DNA of 63,773 nt, the filler included, from Asterionella formosa (lineage: Eukaryota), in the NCBI GenBank assembly GCA_002256025.1. It is 4 parts of 4 records of this genome, joined end to end, with 100 filler letters (N's around TTAATTAATTAA, not from the genome) between each part and the next. Parts side by side here need not be neighbours in the genome. Positions count along the whole stretch, not along the records: positions 31,986 to 47,850 come from NKIB01005239.1; 3 more parts are not named here. The stretch is one strand, 5' to 3'. Shown in pieces: positions 2,580-48,849 of this stretch. Position 1 is the first letter of the stretch, and each line of letters begins with the position of its first letter. The translations under genes and the position numbers were made by a program. The notes beneath the pieces are model-generated. The model was not told the DNA's origin and did not search any database. It saw only the letters and a program-made list of their open reading frames with translations.

Positions 2580-3194
2580 TATTTTGCTTTGTTGCTTTTT
2601 TTTGCAAGTTTGTTTTTGTGAGACCATTTTGGTGGAAAGTAAAATATTATGCCCACATCGGTACAAGCACTAATTGATACAAAGATTCAACCTTTCAATA
2701 TTCGCAGCTATAAATTTTATATCCAGACTTGTATTTCAGCATTCATCCCGTGAACATTCACAGAATACAGCGGTAGAATATTTCTCACGGGGTCTGTAAA
2801 AGAATGTGAGGATTGCGAACAGTAGGAGTTGATGTCATAAGTTCAAATGTTACCTGTTCTGGTACTGGTACCAGGCATAACCAGGAAACAGGTAAGTACC
2901 ATAACAGACTGGCACACCCGGATTATTTGACGAGCTCTTTTTACAAACGCGATACTCTCCGTAGACAGAAATGTGCTCAAAGCGAAGCGAACGCTTTAGT
3001 CAATGCGAACATTAACGTCGCTCAATGCGAATGAATGCCTTCCCAACCATTTACTCAGGCGAATGTAGCACTCTGAATTGCGAACGCCAATGTTCCAACG
3101 CAATAACTAATGCGCGACGCGGGGGCTGCGAAGCCCATTCCGCGTTCTCTGATCATAATATCATACAACGCTTCTACATCACACGAAAGTCGAC

Positions 3195-4220
3195 ATGTCG
3201 CCGGTCGAAAACAACAATACTACCCAAGAAGCAATTGTGGAACCAACAAGTTTGGACATCCTCCATGGTCGAGAATATATGTGCGTCAGTCACATTGGGA
3301 ATAGGTGCTTTCGTCTATTGATTAGTTTCATCCTAGAGGAGTACAAGGCCTTGTCGACCCTGACAAACAAGGCAAGGTTTTTCAACTCTATAGTCAAATC
3401 CATTTTTATTTCGGGAGGCAGATTCCTCCGGAGAAATCCAGGCAAGAGAGGGTCGTGGGAAATGAGTGATTTCAAAAAGGCAGAATACAAGGTTTGGCAT
3501 TCGTTTCGACACTTTAACATGAAGCGGCAACCAACACGAATGGAGGAAAGTCTAACGCAGGATATCAAGCACTACTTCGATTCGGCTGAGCATTTCGACT
3601 GGAAAGGCATCGTATATTTCATGATTAATGCCTCAGCGCTAAACCCGAAGAAAGTGATAAATGAACCAACGAGTTTGGACATTCTCCGCGGTAGAGAAGA
3701 TTTCAGTATCCACCATATCGGAAATATATGTTTTCATGAAATGATTAGTAATAGCGTTGAACACTACGTGATTTTGACGACACGATCAGAGAAGAGCAAG
3801 TTTCTCTCGTCCTTAGTACACATGATTAATAATTCAGGAGGTAGATTCCTCCATAAACAGGTACATGATGGTGGAGGATTGTGGGAAGAAGATCACTTCC
3901 AAGAAGCAAAAACGATGGTTGGCCAGGCACTTCGAGATTTCATCAAGAAGACTATGAGACTCAATGGCTCCTTACTTCTTAGTGTGTCAGATGCCTTCTG
4001 TAGATCACATCACTTTGATTGGAAAAGCATGGTCGAAGAAACTCAACTCCTGCAATCAGAAATAAATAATTGTTTCGCAAGGGAAGAAATTGATTTTAAC
4101 TGCTGCTGGGGGAACAACATCTCTTGTATCACTGATTCAACTCTGCGTGAGATATTGTTCAGTGCCGGTGAGATCGATTGTCAACAAGACACCATGGGCG
4201 AAAAAGCAAAATTTCTGTAA
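3195..4220 (+). CDS. Tandem DUF6824 domain protein
   Basis: Two copies of EPTSLDIL.GR....HIGN..F...I....Y........K......V......GGRFL, the signature of the DUF6824 family expanded in diatoms. Single 341-aa ORF. Confidence 0.8.
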   Translation: MSPVENNNTTQEAIVEPTSLDILHGREYMCVSHIGNRCFRLLISFILEEYKALSTLTNKARFFNSIVKSIFISGGRFLRRNPGKRGSWEMSDFKKAEYKVWHSFRHFNMKRQPTRMEESLTQDIKHYFDSAEHFDWKGIVYFMINASALNPKKVINEPTSLDILRGREDFSIHHIGNICFHEMISNSVEHYVILTTRSEKSKFLSSLVHMINNSGGRFLHKQVHDGGGLWEEDHFQEAKTMVGQALRDFIKKTMRLNGSLLLSVSDAFCRSHHFDWKSMVEETQLLQSEINNCFAREEIDFNCCWGNNISCITDSTLREILFSAGEIDCQQDTMGEKAKFL

Positions 4221-15475: not shown

Positions 15476-16567
15476 AGGGAAAACCTTTTACCTTTGAAAA
15501 GGTTTGATGTAATGGATATTAATTCAGTCCGTAGTATGCATAGTTTGTTGAAAAGTAACTGGACCATTGGCATATACTTGAATAAATAGAATAAGGACCT
15601 CGTCCATGGTTATCCAAGGTAGTAGGATTATCCGATAGGATTAAAACCTCATCAACAACCTTGTAATCGCAAGAACGACGACGGAAAGTATCACGACGTA
15701 GTCATTTGTCAATTATCACTTATCGACATTGATATCCCAATATCAATTACATATCTATAATCAAATCATGTTGTAAAACCCATGTTCCTGGTGAAAATAC
15801 ACAATGTACTATAAATAGTAGCTCGAGCTGCATATGATGCAGCAAACTGGTATCCACAATATTCTGAACTTGAAATTCCTTGATTGGAGGATGAGCCTTT
15901 ANNNNNNNNNNNNNNNNNNNNNNNNNNNNNNNNNNNNNNNNNNNNTTAATTAATTAANNNNNNNNNNNNNNNNNNNNNNNNNNNNNNNNNNNNNNNNNNN
16001 NTAATTCGCGTAGATTTCTTGCATGGTTTGAGGACTGGTTTGGTATCATTATGTACCGGTAGTCAGGAAGGAAAAGCACATGTTTGTAGCCAGCCCGTAA
16101 CCGTTGAATTTTCGTGATACTTTTTGGTGATACAAATTCATTTTTATTTTTGTGGAGAATGGATTTTTTCGGTTTAAATCGAGTATCCGTTACATGATAC
16201 TTTTTCAAAAAAAATGATACCAAATCGAAAATGATAAGAACGACCCCACCGTGGCTGATTTCAAGTTGTTAATGGATCTGGGGTGTTTTTTTCATACAGA
16301 GCAAACCATCATACAGTATCCGTCTCGTAACATAAACTACATCGCTCCTGTACCAGGTACCGTTGTAGGTGCAGTATCATGGACTGGCGTTATCATCATA
16401 ATACCTAGTACAGTAATCGTTTTGTGTGAAGGATGAATATTTCATCGATACTGAGATTTTATGAACAAGTCGAAGGACGACATGGTAACCCTTCTACAAG
16501 GCTTTTCTCGTGAGTCAAAGGAAACGTTTCTATGTTACTCATAAACCTGAACCAGCTCACATAGAAA

Positions 16568-26229: not shown

Positions 26230-28003
26230 TCATCCCGTTTCACTGCTCTCTCCTGATACTCCGCAGATTCCACCGAAGTGGTGTTGCTTTGTCTCGCTCA
26301 TGCTTACCAAGGATTGAATAGTCATCAATACTGCGCTGAGCAAAACAACTATACCGATAGAAAAAGCAATAAATGAGTTTCGCCGTAACTTCTTCATGAG
26401 ATATGAGAGACTCATTTGGCCAACACATGTCGCCGAAAATCCTACGATGAGACACACAGTGGCATAGTCTGGCAACAACAAGCCAAAAACGATAAACGAT
26501 GTCGTTGCGGTGAAACTTGTAAATAGGATCATGCAGGCACTGGTGGCACACCCGACCATGGGGTGGATACCCATGGCTAACATGAGAGGGCCTGCAAATG
26601 TAAGGTAAGATTACAAGATCTTGGCTAAACAGATTGGCTTGGATGTATCAGCACTACATCAGGACCACACCCTTACCTTTGACAATTCCACCTCCAATTC
26701 CAAACATTCCTGCAAAAACACCATGGTTAGAAGACAGCCAAGCCACGGCACAACAGTGACCAAAATAAAGGGAAAGGACGAAATCTAAAAGGATCATTCC
26801 ATAGTCTTGAGACCGTCATATTCTTCCAATTCACTTACCAGCAAAGAACCCCGCAAAGCAGCAAACGGCAGGATAAACAATTGTGGCTCGACCGTCCCAT
26901 TGGATATCCCCTTCCACGTATTGGTATCCTAACCGACGCTTAGTCTCAAAGCGCTTCACCAGGTAGTTTCGGGCAAAGAAAGAGGTTAAAAAGATCCATC
27001 CAAACATAATGGCGTTGGCAATCCAGAATGAGCTTGAGCCACAAATAATTCCAAGTGGAGATATAAAAGCGCCACCTCCTTTCATCAAATTAATGGCTAA
27101 CACGACAAGGAACAAGGTGATCAACATGTATACATTTGACTTGGGAGTCTTACGTTCGTCTTCTAAAATTTGGGCCAATTCATCGCCCACTTCTAGCTTG
27201 CTCGATTTAATAGAGTCAACTTGATCCTCGCCTTTCTGGATGTCCAGATGTTCCATACATCCGTAGACTTGATACGCTTCATCATTCAATAACTTCGCCA
27301 ATTCATTTGAATTCTCCGTTTCATGCAATTGATGACTTTCAGCTTTGTACATTTTGACAGCTCGAGCCAGGCTAGTATATGCCGTAACGGAGAGGAGCAG
27401 AACTAGCATGACGACCAACACCTTTGACGGTAAAATCTTATTCAACAAAGCTCCAATCAAGGCTCCCGCAATCGTCAATGGTTCCATGACTAAAATTAGA
27501 TCCCAGTCTACCAATGGTCGATCTGCTAGTGGATGTCGTTTGTTGGCATTGAGTACGGCGTTGGCAACTGCACCACCGAAGACTGTCACATTCGACAAGG
27601 GAATGGCGTGTTTGGGAGAAAATCCCATAACTAAAATGAAAATGGGCACTAATATGCCACCACCTCCAATGCCTCCTCCCGCAGCTATCATGAGCCCAAG
27701 GACAGCACAAATAACGCCAGCATAGTCGCTGGAATCCAGGGGGAAAAGGACTTTGTGTTCATCAAAGTCGATTTGTAGTGATCGTATCCTTGAATTATGA
27801 GTTGGCGTAGTGGGCGATTGAAGAAACATAATCATCAGGACGAAAAGTTGGAGTAAAACGAGAACCAAAAAGAAAATCTTTACACGAGCAGCTGTAATAA
27901 ATTCTTCATCACGACGAATTTGGGAATTCACTGGACATTGGGGATGAGGATTTTGGTGTCTGTGTCTTTCATTGAGTGACAGATCTTCTCCGGCTGCTTT
28001 CAT
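26230..28003 (-). CDS. TauE/SafE (TSUP) sulfite-exporter family membrane protein, copy A
   Basis: AAGGGIGGGGILVP, RHPLADRPLVDWDLILVMEP, AGMFGIGGGIVKGPLML. Exons 28003-26839, 26709-26677 and 26591-26230 with GT-AG introns. Confidence 0.9.
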
Positions 28004-28685
28004 GTTGCAGTAAACACAAGGATGAGAGGGAGTGAAACAGTACAGATATTTATGCATATATAGAGAATGTGGTTTGTTGCAAATCTTGCTCTCAGCTATC
28101 CTTTTTTGATGGAAATCTGTCAAATTGTGAATGTTGATTTATCGTTTTACTAAAATCTTCTCGTGATGGCCAGAGTAATTGCTTGATGAAATAATCATGA
28201 ATATTATTAAATCTCACGTCTCAAAATCCACGTTGCTAAGACAAGGTCCTAGGAGAACCCTGGTACTGGTACCCGTATGTACTGACATACCGCTAGGTCA
28301 ACAGTTCCACTAGAAATACCTGGGAGTACCTGGTACCAGATAACCTATGTACCGGTACCAGGTACCTGGTACTACTTGGAACACCTTCACATAATATGTA
28401 AGACACATACCAATATGTACATTTATTTTTCCTCCATTTACCGGTATTCGTGTACAGGTACCGTGCACGTATAAACTAAAAATATAGAGCGATGATTCTA
28501 TTTCCGATAGCTAGCTGCTGCATAAATATATAGAACTGCTTATGATGGACACGATAGACTACGACAAAACGGTATGCTGTGCGATGTCAGTTAACTGGTT
28601 CGGCATTGTTCCCGAAGCATGGCGCAGCATTCCGTAGTCCTAGAACTTGCATAAATTTTAGAATAACTAATTAATTTTTATACTA

Positions 28686-30690: not shown

Positions 30691-31852
30691 ATGATTGCGT
30701 TCGAAGGAGTTCGTGCAGTGAACGAAGAACAGCAGACGTCGCAGCTGAAATCTGACACAAAAATTCCAGCCAGTACTGGAATCAAGTCGTTGCTCCTTGC
30801 GTGGGTTCTCTTGACTACAATCGCTCTTTCTGTTTCATATCATTTGATAAATAACACGACATTTTACGAACGCGAATCATGGGTCCGATCACTTCAAAAG
30901 CACGGAGAATACGTCTTTAGCGAACACAAGGCACTCCGTCCTTTGGATTCCAGCGACTATGCTGGCGTTATTTGTGCTGTCCTTGGGCTCATGATAGCTG
31001 CGGGAGGAGGTATTGGAGGTGGCGGCATATTAGTACCCATTTTCATTTTAGTTATGGGATTTTCTCCCAAGCACGCCATTCCCTTATCGAATGTGACAGT
31101 CTTTGGTGGCGCAGTTGCCAACGCCGTACTCAATGCCAACAAACGACATCCTCTAACAGATCGACCTTTGGTAGATTGGGATCTCATTTTAGTCATGGAG
31201 CCTTTGACAATAGCGGGGGCCTTGATCGGAGCGTTTTTGAATAAGATTTTACCGTCCGAGCTGTTGGTTGTGATGTTGGTTCTGCTACTAGCCTTTACGG
31301 CATATACTAGCTTGGCTCAGGCAGTCAAGATGTACAGAGCTGAAACTCGACATTTGCGCGCCTTAGCTGCAGAAAGCGAACTAACGAAAATAGTGCACGA
31401 AGAGGAAGACGCGGACCAAGAGGAAGCATTGTTAGAGCATATGGAACTCCAAGAAGGCGAAAATCCAGGTGATGGTACTTTGACGGACATAAACTTTAAA
31501 GTGGAAGGCGAGTTGGCCCAAATTTTGGAAGAAGAAAGGAAGACACCAATGTCAAATGTTTATATGTTGGTTAGCATGTTTATTGTCGTTTTGTTCATCA
31601 ACGTAATGAAAGGAGGTGGTGCGTTTCGATCGCCCCTTGGTATTCGCTGCGGCTCAAACTCGTTCTGGGTTGCCAACGCCGTTATGCTTGGTTGGATACT
31701 TGTTACCTCTTTCTTTGCCCGGAACATCCTGGTTCAACGCTTCGAGACAAAGCGTCGTGTTGGATACCAATATGTGGAAGGGGACATTCAATGGGACGGT
31801 CGAGCCACAATTGTTTATCCTGCCGTTTGCTGCTTTGCGGGGTTCTTTGCAG
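30691..31852 (+). CDS. TauE/SafE family membrane protein, copy B (3' exons lost in the scaffold gap)
   Basis: Near-identical to copy A from LDSSDYAGVICAVLGL onward. The donor G|GTATGT at 31853 sits at the same position as the first intron of copy A. The gap starts at 31886. Confidence 0.88.
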
Positions 31853-31989
31853 GTATGTTTGATGAGGAGCAAAGGAATATGGAATNNNNNNNNNNNNNNN
31901 NNNNNNNNNNNNNNNNNNNNNNNNNNNNNTTAATTAATTAANNNNNNNNNNNNNNNNNNNNNNNNNNNNNNNNNNNNNNNNNNNNCAGT

Positions 31990-32470
31990 TGCACTACAAT
32001 TGGTATAAAACATTGTCAAGATGTTAAGACAGGCTAGAATTGACTTCTTGAGGCATCTACAATTCAATTGGCGTCATCAACACCAATTGAATTGGCATTG
32101 ACATGAATTTAATTGCCTCAGAAATAAAGCGAAGTCAGTCAATCCAGTATTGACCATGAGGGGGTAATGGCCTTCACACCATCATCACCAATCGAATTGG
32201 TATTGAGATCAAGTGTAGTCATGACAGTAAGGGCCTTGAAGGCCTGTGTTGATATTGACCTTGATGGGGTAATGGCCTTCGCATCATCATCACCAATTGA
32301 GTTGGCATTGAGATCAAGTGTATTCACGACAGCATCGACCTTGAAGACATGTGTTAATGGTCTCGATGCCATCAAGACCAATAGAATTAAAGTCGAAACC
32401 AACTGTAGTCAATTCAGCATTGGCCTTGACAGCCTCTACAATTAGCCTTGGCACCGACAACATCAATTGA
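31990..32470 (-). pseudogene. Degenerate RI-like leucine-rich-repeat fragments
   Basis: LDLNANSIGDDDAKAI and LDLNTNSIGDDGVKAI repeats with further broken copies on both sides. No intact long ORF. Confidence 0.6.
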
Positions 32471-32944
32471 ATTCTTTGGTACATCAAGTTTCGCCGCGAC
32501 GCCGCTCAAAATAGCCGAAAATTTGAGCGCATGCCGTTTTTACGCAGTACCAGTACGTAAAAACGATTTGAACAACGACACCGGTCAATGACGTTCGTTT
32601 TCGTACAAAGCGACTCCATCAGTCGCCATGACTGCAGGTATGTTCGAACAGCACAAAGGATGTCCTGTTACGGGTTTCGATACCAGTACCCAAGTTGAGA
32701 TTGATCGTTGTGGGTAAATTACGTGGAAATACTACAGAGCATTTTCTACACATGCAGCGACATAAAACAATAGCAAAAAAAAGATGGCGTGTTACCGTAA
32801 TAGACTAGCGATGTACCGGTACCCACATTGATATACCGCCAAGCAAGGAATTTTTGGGTTGATATAGAGGAGAAACTATATATTAACTTAAATTATAGAC
32901 GAAACTTGTTTACATCCCAACCCGGTGGTTTGAAAACCACTGGG

Positions 32945-34119
32945 ATGGAAGATATCTCAGATGAAAGCGAAGAAGTGGCTGACGAAGATGACAGTCCCAA
33001 TCACAGTCACAGTCATAACGACAGTGACAGTACTGACAGTTCTGGTATCGAAAAACAGCCTCAATTTGAAGAGGGTAACGAGAATGCCTTCAACAGCTGT
33101 GATATCGAAGAAATTGAAGGTGTAATGAACTGTCATAGAAGAGCCTGGTATCTTGGAAAGCGAGGTTCTTTTAGCACTTGATGACGGTGTTTTCTTCAAT
33201 CCACCAAGTGAAACAAAAGTCGAGGTGTGGGTGAATAATTATTTTGCTACAGATGTCAAGATAGGGGAGGTTGAAGGTATCCTTTGCGATTTGGGAAAAC
33301 GGAATTTTGGAGGTGGCGGGAGTCTCATGTGGTTATCAAAAGATCGTCCATACCTTAGAGCTGATCGCATTAGAGTTACAAAGAAAAGATGCACATTTTT
33401 CCATTCCAGTAAATGTCCCTTTGTAATTCGGGAATTATTCAATACCAAAACAAATTTGACCACAATTGAGAGTGGTGACTTAAAACACACACAACCCAAT
33501 GTTGTAAAGGATGACATAAGAAAATGTTTTCACAAATACTATCAGTTATCAGTATGTGTTAATTAGTTCCCTGAATAAATTGAACATGAAACCAGCACAT
33601 TACATTGCTGAGGCTAGGGCAAAAGGAATTCCTGTTGATGAAAAATTGAAAAAGTGCATGAAACAACAACTCACTTGCTTACGCAATAAATCGGTTGGGC
33701 TAATAAATGGTCAAGGCAATAACTGGGGAGGAATCGCTGCTGTCCTTGAATTGTATAAGAAGGAAAATATCTTTAATTTTACACAACATTCGATGTACCT
33801 ACTTGGCATAGACTGTCGACCAGAAGACGACTCGTTGGTAGCTGTACTAACAACCGAGAATTTGTTGCTGAATGCGTACAGACAGCAATTCTGGGGCAAT
33901 CCAATCTTCTTTGCTGCTGATGCATCTTACAAACTGACACAAGAAGGAAACGGCGTTTTTTCAGTTATTACAACCAACTTGGCTCAACAAACAAAAACGA
34001 TTGCATATGGAGTGATAAGCCATGAACACCACAAAGCACAAAGATTCATATTTGCGCCGATTAAGTCTGCCTTGGAAGAGATCGTTAGATATAGGAAAAC
34101 TAATGATATTCCTATCTAG
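32945..34119 (+). mobile_element. Mutator-like transposase N-terminal half (Zn-finger-like DNA-binding region plus first catalytic Asp), frameshifted
   Basis: Acidic N-terminus MEDISDESEE. C..C...H motif CTFFHSSKCPF...GDLKH. LTTENLLLNAYRQ..IFFAADASYKL...TIAYGVISHE matches the MULE D1 region. Stops about 30 aa later. Frame changes near 33130 and 33500-33566. Confidence 0.7.
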
Positions 34120-34202
34120 TAATGATAACTTTTATAAACAGCACTACTACTAGTGCTTTTCCAAATTTATAATCCTTTAATATCTAAGTTACCCCCACGT
34201 TA

Positions 34203-35691
34203 TCATCCTTTAATATCTAAGTTACCTCCACGTTTCGCATTTTTGATTGTTCCAGAACCTTTATTCTTAATACTAGGCTTTGGATGCATTTCATTTGGAA
34301 AGGTAGAAATAATTCCACGGTCAAATGCAAAAGCACATGCATGTTTACACCACGTGTTCGCTAAATGCGCGTGACAATGGCAAGATATGAGGCCTTCATT
34401 GCCCATTGCTTTCAAGCTATTAATCGAAATGGTTCCCAATCCACACGCTCCCAAAATTTCTAAAAAGTTAGTTAGAGCAGCATCATCGTTTTCACTCTTG
34501 GAAACAATAGGTTCAATTAGGTGAAACCTGCGGGTGAGGGAAAGGACATCATCAAAGGTGTGGTTAGCAGAATACTGTTCAGGATTTCGGAGAAGGCGCT
34601 TGTATTCATCATGCATTTTGTTCTTCTTTATCAATTGCATAACAGTTAGTGCAGTAACTGATTCTGTGTTCCCGATATCAAGATATCTCTTTCGAGATTG
34701 GGATAGTTGAATGTGCTGTGACAATGCAGTTGCAGTATTCTGGGACTGCATTGTTTGCATAGAGGACATAATATTTAGGTCCACAAATGACGATGTCGCA
34801 ATCAACAATGAACCCTCTCCGATTCTAATTGAATCACACTTGAAATCAAATGTCACTGTGAGAAATGTAACTTCTTCCCCATTTTGGCTTTTCTCAAGAA
34901 GCTAATAAATGGACTTGTAGAAATTTATCGAGTGTACCGATGAGTGTAAAGTAAAGAAAAATGATAGATCCCCTTTGGAACAATCCTCTAACATGTAAGA
35001 CATGTTATGAATGAAGTTAGCCGTTAAAGGCTTCCTGTGTTCAAAGAATGATTTATCAACACTGTTGATGCCCTCTGAATTGTTGTTGTGTGCAGGCAAA
35101 CCACCACGAAGTAGATTGGAACTGTTCAATTCAATTCTGGTGTGAATGGTGGGACCCCATTGTTTCAACCATGCAGTTGCAACTTTCTTTTCCTTGTATG
35201 TGTTAATCCACTTGAAAATCACCAAATCGCGGATGATTGGAACTAGCTGTATCCAGGGACTTCTTTATACGCCTCGAAGTCTTCACCCATTCTCTTCTTG
35301 TTTTTGTCGTATTTCTTGAACTTTCCTCTATGCTTCTTTACCCATGCATTCCAGGCATGATAAGAGCACATACCAAATCTAAATTCGGCATTTGGCCAAA
35401 TCTTTTTGACAGCCTTGCGACAAGCTAAAGTATAATCAGTCATCGTCTGTATGATAAAGTCTGGTGAGTCCGGTTCCCAGCACCAAGGAGTGTCGCCATG
35501 GGGAAGAGGAAAATTGTCAGTGTGTGCTGGAGTGTCGCCTGCAGGTGACAATGGCAGGATGGAAAAGTTAATGGGATCTACCCTTTTTTCCCAGAAGAGG
35601 AGGAAGCACTATCATCTGACGAACTATCTCCTGAACTCTGCAAGATGCTATCATCCTCCTCATTGTGAGATGATTTGGAAGAACTAGACAT
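34203..35691 (-). mobile_element. Mutator-like transposase C-terminal half (second Asp, CxxH, Glu, SWIM zinc finger), disrupted
   Basis: Own Ser/acidic N-terminus from ATG 35691, then MTDY..A..KAV..IWP.....GMCSYH, HNNNSEGIN and SWIM CHC.......CKH. Frameshifts near 35580 and 35240, and an in-frame stop at 34902-34904. Confidence 0.75.
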
Positions 35692-36526
35692 TTCGTATTT
35701 GTGGAGCGACTTTTGATACAAAGTAATTCATGGATACACATGACAATTCCAAATATAATGCCGATATGATGTATGATGTGGACTTTTATTGCCAAGTAGC
35801 TAGTAATGACAGACCTACAGGATTACATGTGAATTCCAACTGCTGGTACAACACATGTATATAGTGATGCATATTATATACCGGTATGCTTGGCATACAT
35901 ACTACTGGTTACGTACTACCAGTACTTGCATGTGTGTTTGTACAGCTGCCTGTGGTATGGGGTCGATGAGACAGCAACTCCATCGTGACCATGACGAAAT
36001 TATGGGTCTGAATATCTTCACGAATATTGACAATGAAAAATTCCTATTTCGCAGGTGTATGTAGACTAACATAGACGAGATTATCGTTCAATAAGAAAAA
36101 TTTTTGCACTAGTATTGACAACAAAAAGATAAAATCGGCGCTGGAAATTGTTTTTGGTCGTCGTTTGCTCAGTTTTGAAGTTATGACCTAAGTAGCGTCA
36201 GTTTTGAGTCCGCGATGATCAGTTTGATAACTTTGACTAGATAAGGTTTTCTATGTTTTGTAGAAATAGATGAGAAAACCTGAGCAACAGTATTCTTGGA
36301 GAAGGTACAACATTTCAAGATGCAACAAATTCCTCTACGTCAGTTTTGTAGTGAGTTTCGTGTAGGCACTAATTGTCATGGTACATATTTCTATGGAATC
36401 TTGATAAGGTCATTTGACAGCTTACTATAGACATACTTTCAGTCACTCAACAATAGACTGCTTGTTCTTTACACGAATATAAACTTCGCATCGTGGAAAT
36501 GATCACGAACTCCCCTGACTGACAGT

Positions 36527-47782: not shown

Positions 47783-48849
47783 CGCTTCTTGATGTGGTCA
47801 TTGTACTTTTTGTCAATATACAGAAAGAGGAGTTTATATGAGACTAATATNNNNNNNNNNNNNNNNNNNNNNNNNNNNNNNNNNNNNNNNNNNNTTAATT
47901 AATTAANNNNNNNNNNNNNNNNNNNNNNNNNNNNNNNNNNNNNNNNNNNNGGCAAAGATAGACAAAGATAATAGCATCTGTGTTACAAGAAATACACTAT
48001 CAGCAGTTCCAAAGCTTCTTACTTAGGTAATTCATCTGAATGGGAGGAGAAATTTGTTCCATTGAAGAGGCAGCTGGGAAGTGGAAGTCAGGGTTGTGAT
48101 GATCAATATTTTCGAGATGGTCACAGGACTGTGACATAACCGATCAGTAGTTCGCCTCGACTATTAAGTAAAGAAGTTGCTCTAATTACTACTTTTGATT
48201 CCACCTATATAAGTACTATGACTAGTGTAGGAGAAGAATGGAAGTCACGAAACTGGAGAAGAAAAACTAGAGATGAAGGTGTCGGAAAGAAGCAGCAACT
48301 ACTAGATGGGTTATACTGTAGAAGGAGGGAATTGAGGAATGTGGTATTCATATTGCAGTTGTTGAATAATTATGCTGTAAGTGGAATGATATGTACCTTA
48401 CTTCCGGTATTTACATATCCTTGGGAACGAATTATTACACTTTACGATAGTCCAGAGTCAAGACCTAGTTCATATCTATCCAAGAAGCATTCGGATCTCA
48501 AGGCGCAGAGAGGCAGGGGCGATGTGAGAAATCATAGCTGAACTACAGATTGTTACTGGTCACCGATGGCATCACATCTAAAATCGTTGATTCAATATAC
48601 TAGATCACATATATTGTACCAGTATGTATATCCAAAGTGATTCTAACCCATAATGGTGAAAGTAGCAAGCTGTACAAGGCATGAGCTTTCTACTAGTACT
48701 GCCCTGTGGGCAGGTAGATTTTTAGCTTATTGCGGCAGGATTATTCATCCAACAATACTCTGACTATGCATGAATAGTATTGTTCCTTGTCCACTGCATT
48801 ATTCAAGTTCATTCACGTTCATACCATTCCAACTCAAGCTAAGCAACTC

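Follow-up and report, generated by a model that had tools for sequence, protein, structure and literature searches.

Is the active site of an Asp-Asp-Glu (DDE) transposase ever shared out natively between two genes? The question is raised by a locus of Asterionella formosa (GenBank assembly GCA_002256025.1) which lies in a window of 63,773 nucleotides, by which we mean the whole stretch of DNA that was analysed, four parts of four records joined by filler. Two broken genes stand there tail to tail, one at 32945-34119 on the + strand and the other at 35691-34203 on the - strand. The first holds a zinc finger and the first catalytic Asp (D1) of a transposase of the Mutator-like element (MULE) type; the second holds the second Asp (D2), a CxxH motif, the catalytic Glu and a SWIM finger. 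We call them the N-half and the C-half. The catalytic signature of MULEs reads D, D, [C/D]xxH, E, in this order, and we know of no DDE transposase, integrase or RAG1 which is taken to bear its catalytic triad otherwise than on one chain. We conclude that the window copy is probably a dead copy of a multi-copy DNA transposon of MULE type, belonging to a eukaryotic alga, and that the transposase of this family is natively encoded as two convergent genes, the products of which would act in an obligate heteromer completing one DDE site. The core of this reading, namely that the split is native and results neither from a private inversion, nor from a misassembly, nor from the meeting of two unrelated transposases, is supported by the sequence comparisons reported below; the two proteins would then probably build one active site between them.

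A family of N-halves ending at one point

We searched 1.84 billion representative proteins (phmmer) with the 199-residue piece read from the + strand. This gave 211 proteins at E <= 1e-3, including 16 at E <= 1e-30, a yield well above chance expectation. The best 150 of these 211 matches were scored with a profile of the N-half core, and a protein was said to reach the end of the profile when its match entered the last 8 states. This is the case for 117 of the 150, and 108 of the 117 stop at most 5 residues from the same point, the others ending 6-15 residues (3 proteins), 16-50 residues (4 proteins) or more than 50 residues (2 proteins) past the end of the profile. The tail of more than 50 residues found in P0076 has no likeness to the C-half; among the 117 clusters, only P0126 (with P0155 and P0156) runs on into a C-half. 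The same stop point is seen in an alignment of full-length homologues (A1), where 25 of 26 diverse sequences (22-59% identity) end 2-7 residues past the same column. The four ligands of the zinc finger (C143, C151, H175 and H178) are invariant in 26 N-halves, as is D1 throughout this alignment (see Table 1). The ratio of non-synonymous to synonymous substitution rates (dN/dS) is 0.14-0.24 where dS is unsaturated. Judged from these sequences, the N-half is a stand-alone family of open reading frames (ORFs), and it is under purifying selection.

C-halves and a contiguous relative

The C-half family is thinly sampled here, because our later C-half searches gave 4 and 8 proteins only; a word-index search of longer proteins with the 232-residue C piece gave no match. 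Seven C-halves (L035, P0151-P0154, P0188 and P0199) nevertheless have a Met of their own and begin with an acidic or Ser-rich stretch. That of L035 is intact, with 466 residues, its own Met and a Ser/Asp-rich start, and the database C-halves P0151-P0154 and P0188 are stand-alone proteins of 398-552 residues. D2 and CxxH are present wherever the aligned sequences cover them (see Table 1), and variation is absent or nearly so in the N..E motif around the catalytic Glu and at the four SWIM ligands (alignments A4 and A6). For the pair of C-halves L047/L025, the proportion of non-synonymous differences (pN) is 0.37 versus 0.81 for synonymous ones (pS), which are saturated. The C-half of L047 (P0199, 3469-3000 on the - strand of its contig) has in its residues 1-60 an extra Cys/His-rich N-terminal segment which is absent from the other C-halves.

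P0126, P0155 and P0156 represent one contiguous relative of 782-794 residues, found in ENA contigs. Its N part aligns with the N-halves and its C part with the C-halves, in the same order; it differs from them in being a single ORF, with neither low-complexity tail where the two parts meet. Three pieces of the window's C-half run collinear with its residues 359-431, 454-529 and 677-766 (E 4e-4, 5e-9 and 8e-11), and the N and C profiles are unrelated (hhalign probability 0.1%). As the halves are collinear with one contiguous protein and unrelated to each other, we take them, therefore, to be complementary parts of one ancestral transposase. This speaks against the possibility, raised in the initial annotation, that each half came from a different transposase family. 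The same annotation had held that a contiguous homologue would speak for a private inversion; one cluster of the 117 is indeed contiguous, and we read it instead as a sign of common origin. In a tree of the N-core, P0126 is sister to the split forms P0108, P0140 and P0148 (support 99/96), within a clade of split forms as placed by midpoint rooting. P0126 may be either ancestral or a secondary fusion, as this tree has no outgroup.

As far as the aligned proteins tell, it is only together that the two genes hold the MULE-type set D, D, CxxH, E with a DNA-binding finger and a SWIM finger.

Convergent layout in related loci

Scanning metagenome contigs with a small N-half alignment, we collected 50 loci, which form 32 groups at a nucleotide identity of at least 85%, and called their layout by a profile scan of all six frames. 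A C-half lies downstream on the opposite strand in 13 of the 50 loci, which make up 9 of the 32 groups (L003, L009/L035, L012, L016, L018-20/L028, L026/27, L029, L031 and L045/L047-50); 14 groups in all reach far enough downstream for the layout to be judged. In no group does a C-half come after the N-half on the same strand, and 16 groups are too short to tell. The spacers from stop to stop are longer in these loci than in the window copy (see Table 1). Thus the tail-to-tail arrangement and the break point, which had been described from a single decayed copy, are kept elsewhere, and the proposal of a native split made on that copy is borne out both by this layout and by the common stop point of the N-halves.

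We compared the two halves over the 10 loci where both are present. The pairwise identities of the N-halves correlate with those of the C-halves (Mantel r 0.74, a value reached by 0 of 5000 permutations), and the paired halves of different loci share 15-60% protein identity. This suggests that the N/C pairs travelled together through the diversification of the family.

A few other features of these loci were noted. The convergent ORF of 615 residues in L013 was considered as a C-half and rejected, for it is not one. Just beyond the start of the C-half of L016 there is an ORF for a 3'-5' exonuclease (2945-4081, - strand; DNA_pol_A_exo1, E 1e-13), which could be a host neighbour or a cargo gene. 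A conserved ORF of 154 residues without any Pfam match occupies the place where the C-half is expected in L041 (2116-2577) and L044 (1813-2274), on the + strand in both. Finally, L018 and L019, of the L020 family, contain a second, inverted copy of part of the N-half region; these are either rearranged derivatives or chimeras of assembly across the terminal repeats.

Transposon ends, copy number and transcripts

Terminal inverted repeats (TIRs), which the initial annotation had proposed to look for, enclose both genes in three related loci: L047 (1-201 and 3474-3674, 98% identity), L020 (3-200 and 2352-2549, 98%) and L028 (86-283 and 2467-2664, 97%). Counted from the inner edge of the repeat, the first ATG of either gene is 5-40 nt further in (at 240 and 3469 in L047, at 206 and 2321 in L020). 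In L047, an 88-nt GT-AG intron restores an N-half ending at the conserved point, and the C-half is an open frame of 559 residues; because of this, L047 looks intact from repeat to repeat. The copies of the L020 family have differing flanks, and some of them are rearranged or internally deleted. No poly(A) tails were seen at the ends of contigs.

The number of copies was approached through short contigs of sequencing runs laid on the window. On a stretch of 5.5 kb, the DNA run X1 places 12,785 short contigs at 90-100% identity, and some of these contigs contain joints across which 1.3-1.9 kb of the interior is missing, the pattern that deletion derivatives would give. The family is high-copy. 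No further copy of the element was found when the remainder of the window was searched, and no relative of the family was found in the collections of viral and prokaryote genomes.

Evidence of transcription, which had been suggested as a check for two separate transcripts, was obtained in part. Contigs of X19, a poly(A) RNA run made from the same sample as X1, cover the C-half over 34203-35662 at 90-97% identity, and the depth is nil on the spacer bin 34014-34197 and on the bins 35670-36405. Carry-over of DNA into X19 is argued against by the part of a repeat at 35854-36405, which is deepest in DNA and has no depth in X19. The metatranscriptome X18 covers both halves, in contigs which show neither strand nor transcript ends. 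The shares of the stretch in the RNA runs X18 and X20 are small and say nothing on habitat. The same runs bear on one of the lesions of the window copy: an extra T behind 35263 is carried by all the depth found there in X2, X18 and X19, and by 6 contigs of X1 (depth 12,621 of 59,143), so that the frameshift at 35255-35264 is not common to most copies.

Domain matches and structure models

The Pfam profile MULE (PF10551, 99 positions) is matched by the + piece of the window at positions 4-61 (E 0.014) and by the - piece at positions 68-96 (E 0.11), both below the gathering cut-off. The ranges are complementary in this way across the family: N-halves match positions 2-61 and C-halves positions 64-97. 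At E <= 0.1, 18 of 26 N-halves match the profile, the best at E 3.5e-5 with 24.1 bits versus a cut-off of 27.6. The look-alikes of both halves in the ESM Atlas belong to MULE, ZSWIM RNaseH-like, FLYWCH and SWIM clusters, and a sequence search of the PDB with the N and C profiles gave nothing relevant.

We modelled the N-half P0040 (26 sequences). From about residue 80 onwards, the predicted local distance difference test (pLDDT) is 82-96, with a dip at about 245-250. The model contains a zinc-finger sheet (136-170), helices (190-262), three strands (317-320, 332-339 and 345-353) and a final helix (358-381) which stops six residues before the end of the protein; the invariant Asp 321 is at the end of the first of these strands. 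The finger resembles that of AFT2 (4lmg_A, Z 6.1, root-mean-square deviation 2.9 over 76 aligned residues; Foldseek probability 0.91), WRKY33 (8k31, Z 4.7) and WRKY1 (6j4e_B, Z 4.6). These Z values are modest, and they point to a WRKY-GCM1-type DNA-binding domain. By what is known of that fold, three strands and a helix followed by the end of the protein have the look of the first half of an RNase H-like core. In a fold search with the P0040 model, no RNase H-fold enzyme was retrieved for residues 316-382, the sole row in that part being 7elm_U (Z 4.4); it may be that a half-fold simply goes unmatched in such a search.

A predicted two-chain transposase

These observations suggest the following scheme. 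The product of the first gene would consist of the WRKY-GCM1-type finger, the helical linker, and strands 1-3 and helix 1 of the core with D1, and would end right after this helix. That of the second gene, with its own Met and low-complexity tail, would supply D2, CxxH, the Glu and the SWIM finger. The two identical terminal repeats would act as promoters of both genes and therefore both halves would be made together, as in maize MuDR. The three strands and the helix of the N-half would then pack against the strands of the C-half, completing the active site, and the heteromer would cut and paste like other MULEs.

We lean, with somewhat less assurance than for the two-gene encoding as such, towards seeing in this family a natural split DDE transposase, old and widespread among the MULEs of protists, where one RNase H-like fold is borne by two heterodimerising chains, both expressed from identical TIR promoters. 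The split may then be a built-in control, since the enzyme would be active only when transcription takes place at both ends of the element.

Weighing of the alternatives

Several points weigh against native encoding by two genes whose products assemble. Concerning the layout, 5 of the 14 testable groups have an N-half without detectable C-half despite at least 700 nt of downstream sequence, the distance covered being 1-7 kb (L013, L021-23, L024, L038 and L040/41/43/44/46), and two groups show a C-half, or a fragment of it, upstream on the same strand: in L025 (1-2824) it is complete to its stop, and in L039 (2-1283) it is a fragment only. This last arrangement may have arisen when one copy inserted itself into another. 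Concerning the transposon, there are no recognisable terminal repeats around the window copy, and no contig holds both flanks of one copy, so that a target-site duplication, which in MULEs measures 8-11 bp, is readable in none. Concerning transcripts, the cover of the N-half in X19 is partial (33278-33645). All matches to the Pfam MULE and SWIM profiles remain below the gathering cut-offs, and they are very weak for the C-halves, 1 of 13 matching each of the two. The contiguous protein P0126 folds poorly (mean pLDDT 47.2, below 50 in the core), and the convergence of D, D and E is not visible in it; the alignment used for this fold was shallow, because MAFFT had misplaced the C-halves amid the many N-halves. 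Binding and catalysis by the two halves are themselves predictions made from sequence. Finally, the very existence of the contiguous cluster P0126 means that the split copies could in principle depend on proteins of that type.

This last point is the basis of the main rival explanation, according to which the split elements are non-autonomous or regulatory, the active enzyme being of the contiguous P0126 type and the N-half being, for example, a DNA-binding repressor or a helper. The contiguous form does exist (P0126, P0155 and P0156), some loci do hold an N-half without a C-half, and the assembly of the halves is a prediction; yet that form makes up one cluster of the 117, the catalytic residues are kept on both halves, the N-half is constrained and the C-half has pN below pS, the halves co-diverge as linked pairs, and L047 is apparently intact from repeat to repeat. 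We hold this explanation to be unlikely.

It is much more doubtful still that trans-splicing, or some comparable post-transcriptional step, makes one ordinary transposase out of the two halves. Nothing speaks directly for it, except that spliceosomal introns occur in some N-half genes, which means that the hosts do splice. The conservation of the N-half stop, and of the Met and low-complexity start of the C-half, is hard to reconcile with such a joining, as is the lack of both tails at the join of P0126; among the RNA-run joints listed, none links the two genes, which is weak evidence.

Could the two genes be a pair of host genes domesticated from a MULE, rather than a transposon? Both are conserved and constrained, as such genes would be. 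Domesticated MULE genes (of the FHY3/FAR1, MUSTANG or ZSWIM type) have a single or low copy number, no TIRs and a fixed position. The present family, on the contrary, is high-copy with deletion derivatives, TIRs and differing flanks: the related loci end in repeats of about 200 bp, the flanks change from copy to copy, X1 contains thousands of diverged copies as well as internal-deletion derivatives, and copies are found broken or deleted (the window copy, L020/L028). We give this explanation hardly any credit.

Least probable of all is that an ordinary MULE gene was inverted in this genome alone, or wrongly assembled. In a single copy, a contiguous gene whose 3' part had been turned round would look similar, and the window is stitched from contigs, but the element sits within a single gap-free contig (31986-47850), and the explanation is refuted by the convergent layout and break point recurring in 9 independent contig groups, at 15-60% protein identity, and by the stop shared by 108 of the 117 clusters.

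Comparison with known systems

The two-gene family resembles canonical MULEs in the order D..D..CxxH..E, in its SWIM finger, in its zinc-finger N-terminus and in its long TIRs. Canonical MULEs encode their enzyme as a single chain; in this family the break in the core falls after helix 1 and before the strand bearing D2, and the ordered set is spread over two genes. Apart from one cluster, the halves form separate convergent ORFs, and not a single-polypeptide transposase.

The closest analogy of layout is maize MuDR, where mudrA and mudrB lie between long TIRs; there a single protein, MURA, is the entire DDE transposase, and mudrB encodes an unrelated helper. As in MuDR, two convergent genes start at long enclosing TIRs (about 200 bp; L047, L020 and L028), and the N-terminal DNA-binding domain is a zinc finger of putative WRKY-GCM1 type. 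The difference lies in the second gene, which here is the C-terminal half of the transposase, with D2, CxxH, E and SWIM, and not the unrelated mudrB. Two element-encoded proteins are also needed for transposition by Tn7 (TnsA/TnsB) and in RAG1/RAG2 or ProtoRAG, and the RAG1-like and RAG2-like genes of ProtoRAG are convergent too. In the Tn7 and RAG systems each catalytic fold is complete within one protein, whereas in the present family two chains appear to share one RNase H-like fold.

Among the elements already catalogued, a survey of MULEs, which discusses mudrA/mudrB, describes the RepBase group 'MULE-Diatoms' (group 37) as having 1 ORF, SWIM and TIRs of 123-124 bp (Dupeyron et al. 2019, PMC6446971). 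An active MULE, that of Phaeodactylum tricornutum, measures 3.7 kb, is bounded by TIRs of about 200 bp and moves in real time; of its two ORFs, the authors report that one has both MULE and SWIM domains, and they call the second a UBR-type E3 ligase (Abbriano et al., bioRxiv 10.1101/2023.01.02.522487). It is like the present family in being a diatom element with two ORFs and TIRs of about 200 bp. Judged by its published description it may nevertheless differ, because Pfam here places MULE on the N-half and SWIM on the C-half.

The initial annotation knew of no description of such an architecture, and our search of the full-text literature likewise brought up none of a DDE core shared between two genes, although supplements may hold maps of such elements. 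We regard the two-gene layout as a new form of Mutator-like element, itself a known superfamily. If our reading is true, this family has kept its triad on two genes through deep divergence and is a natural split RNase H-fold enzyme, which would offer a route to the study of the in-trans assembly of RNase H folds and a ready-made two-component, hence controllable, transposase for algal genetics. It would matter for annotation too: domain-based annotation would find a MULE signal that is partial or below threshold on one gene and, on the other, a SWIM signal that is weak at best, so that pipelines are likely to miss or miscount these elements, or to label the second gene as something else.

The window copy and its surroundings

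We read the sequence of the window copy again: all the coordinates of the initial annotation hold, its motif positions are exact, and the division of the triad, the separate ATG and low-complexity start of each half and the decay of both genes are as it had described them. The features are collected in Table 1.

Table 1. Features of the two-gene element in the window (positions along the whole stretch).
Feature	Position	Strand	Remark
N-half gene, pseudogene in window copy	32945..34119	+	frames 32945-33178, 33216-33545, 33550-34116
Zinc-finger region, C..C..H..H type	33381..33500	+	one His ligand replaced in window copy
First catalytic Asp codon (DASYKL)	33919..33921	+	Asp invariant, 27/27 rows of alignment A1
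Spacer between the two stop codons, 83 nt	34120..34202		related loci: 126-821 nt
C-half gene, pseudogene in window copy	34203..35691	-	frames 35727-35581, 35608-35246, 35264-34905, 34901-34206
SWIM-type zinc finger (CxC..CxH)	34341..34382	-	C405, C407, C416, H418 invariant in A4 and A6
In-frame TAG breaking the C-half	34902..34904	-	read in the sequence
Catalytic Glu codon (NNNSEGIN)	35073..35075	-	N194, E197 invariant in A4, at least 90% of A6 rows
Frameshift between C-half pieces	35255..35264	-	carried by a minority of copies only
CxxH motif (CSYH)	35357..35368	-	present in 9/9 covering rows
Second catalytic Asp codon (MTDY)	35435..35437	-	Asp in 9/9 covering rows of A3

The N-half gene begins at the ATG at 32945 with an acidic, Ser-rich start, followed by the C-C-H-H zinc finger, the helical linker and the putative core strands 1-3 and helix 1 with the first Asp. 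Two frameshifts distribute it over three frames. It ends at the TAG at 34117-34119, 30 residues past the motif AYGVISHE, and the triplets TAA TGA TAA stand directly 3' of this stop. Its protein is 60% identical to P0002, an intact N-half of 343 residues. On the other strand, the C-half gene begins at the ATG at 35691 with a Ser-rich start, followed by the second Asp, CxxH, the Glu, a long insertion region, the SWIM finger and a basic tail, and ends at the TGA at 34205-34203. It matches positions 3-426 of the C-half hidden Markov model (E 1.6e-18 to 3.5e-37) and is also collinear with P0151 and P0152. Besides the lesions listed in Table 1, it has a further frameshift near 35581-35608, which makes two frameshifts and one in-frame stop. 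A tandem duplication of 33 bp (94% identity, 34167-34232) repeats the last codons of the C-half and its stop inside the tail-to-tail spacer.

A separate repeat of about 650 bp (35885/35920-36569) adjoins the start of the C-half. Its depth is 5-10 times that of the element in the DNA runs X1 and X2, both of its borders show sharp loose ends, and the poly(A) depth in X19 is nil over most of its length (35854-36405). It occurs only once in the window and contains no clear internal repeats. The gaps at 15902-16001, 31886-31985 and 47851-47950 are N44-TTAATTAATTAA-N44 linkers with stops in all frames, which join the contigs.

The neighbours of the element in the window are eukaryotic, Tsr1/BMS1, a fatty-acid desaturase and TauE among them. 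The TauE/SafE-type membrane protein genes are two, closely similar and divergent (26831-28057 on the - strand and 30691-31941 on the + strand), the second one entering the gap at 31886. Lastly, leucine-rich repeats of the LRR_6 type extend over 32068-32494 on the - strand, with periods of 105 and 85 nt; this region is repetitive in the DNA runs, and a poly(A) RNA contig covers it without differences.

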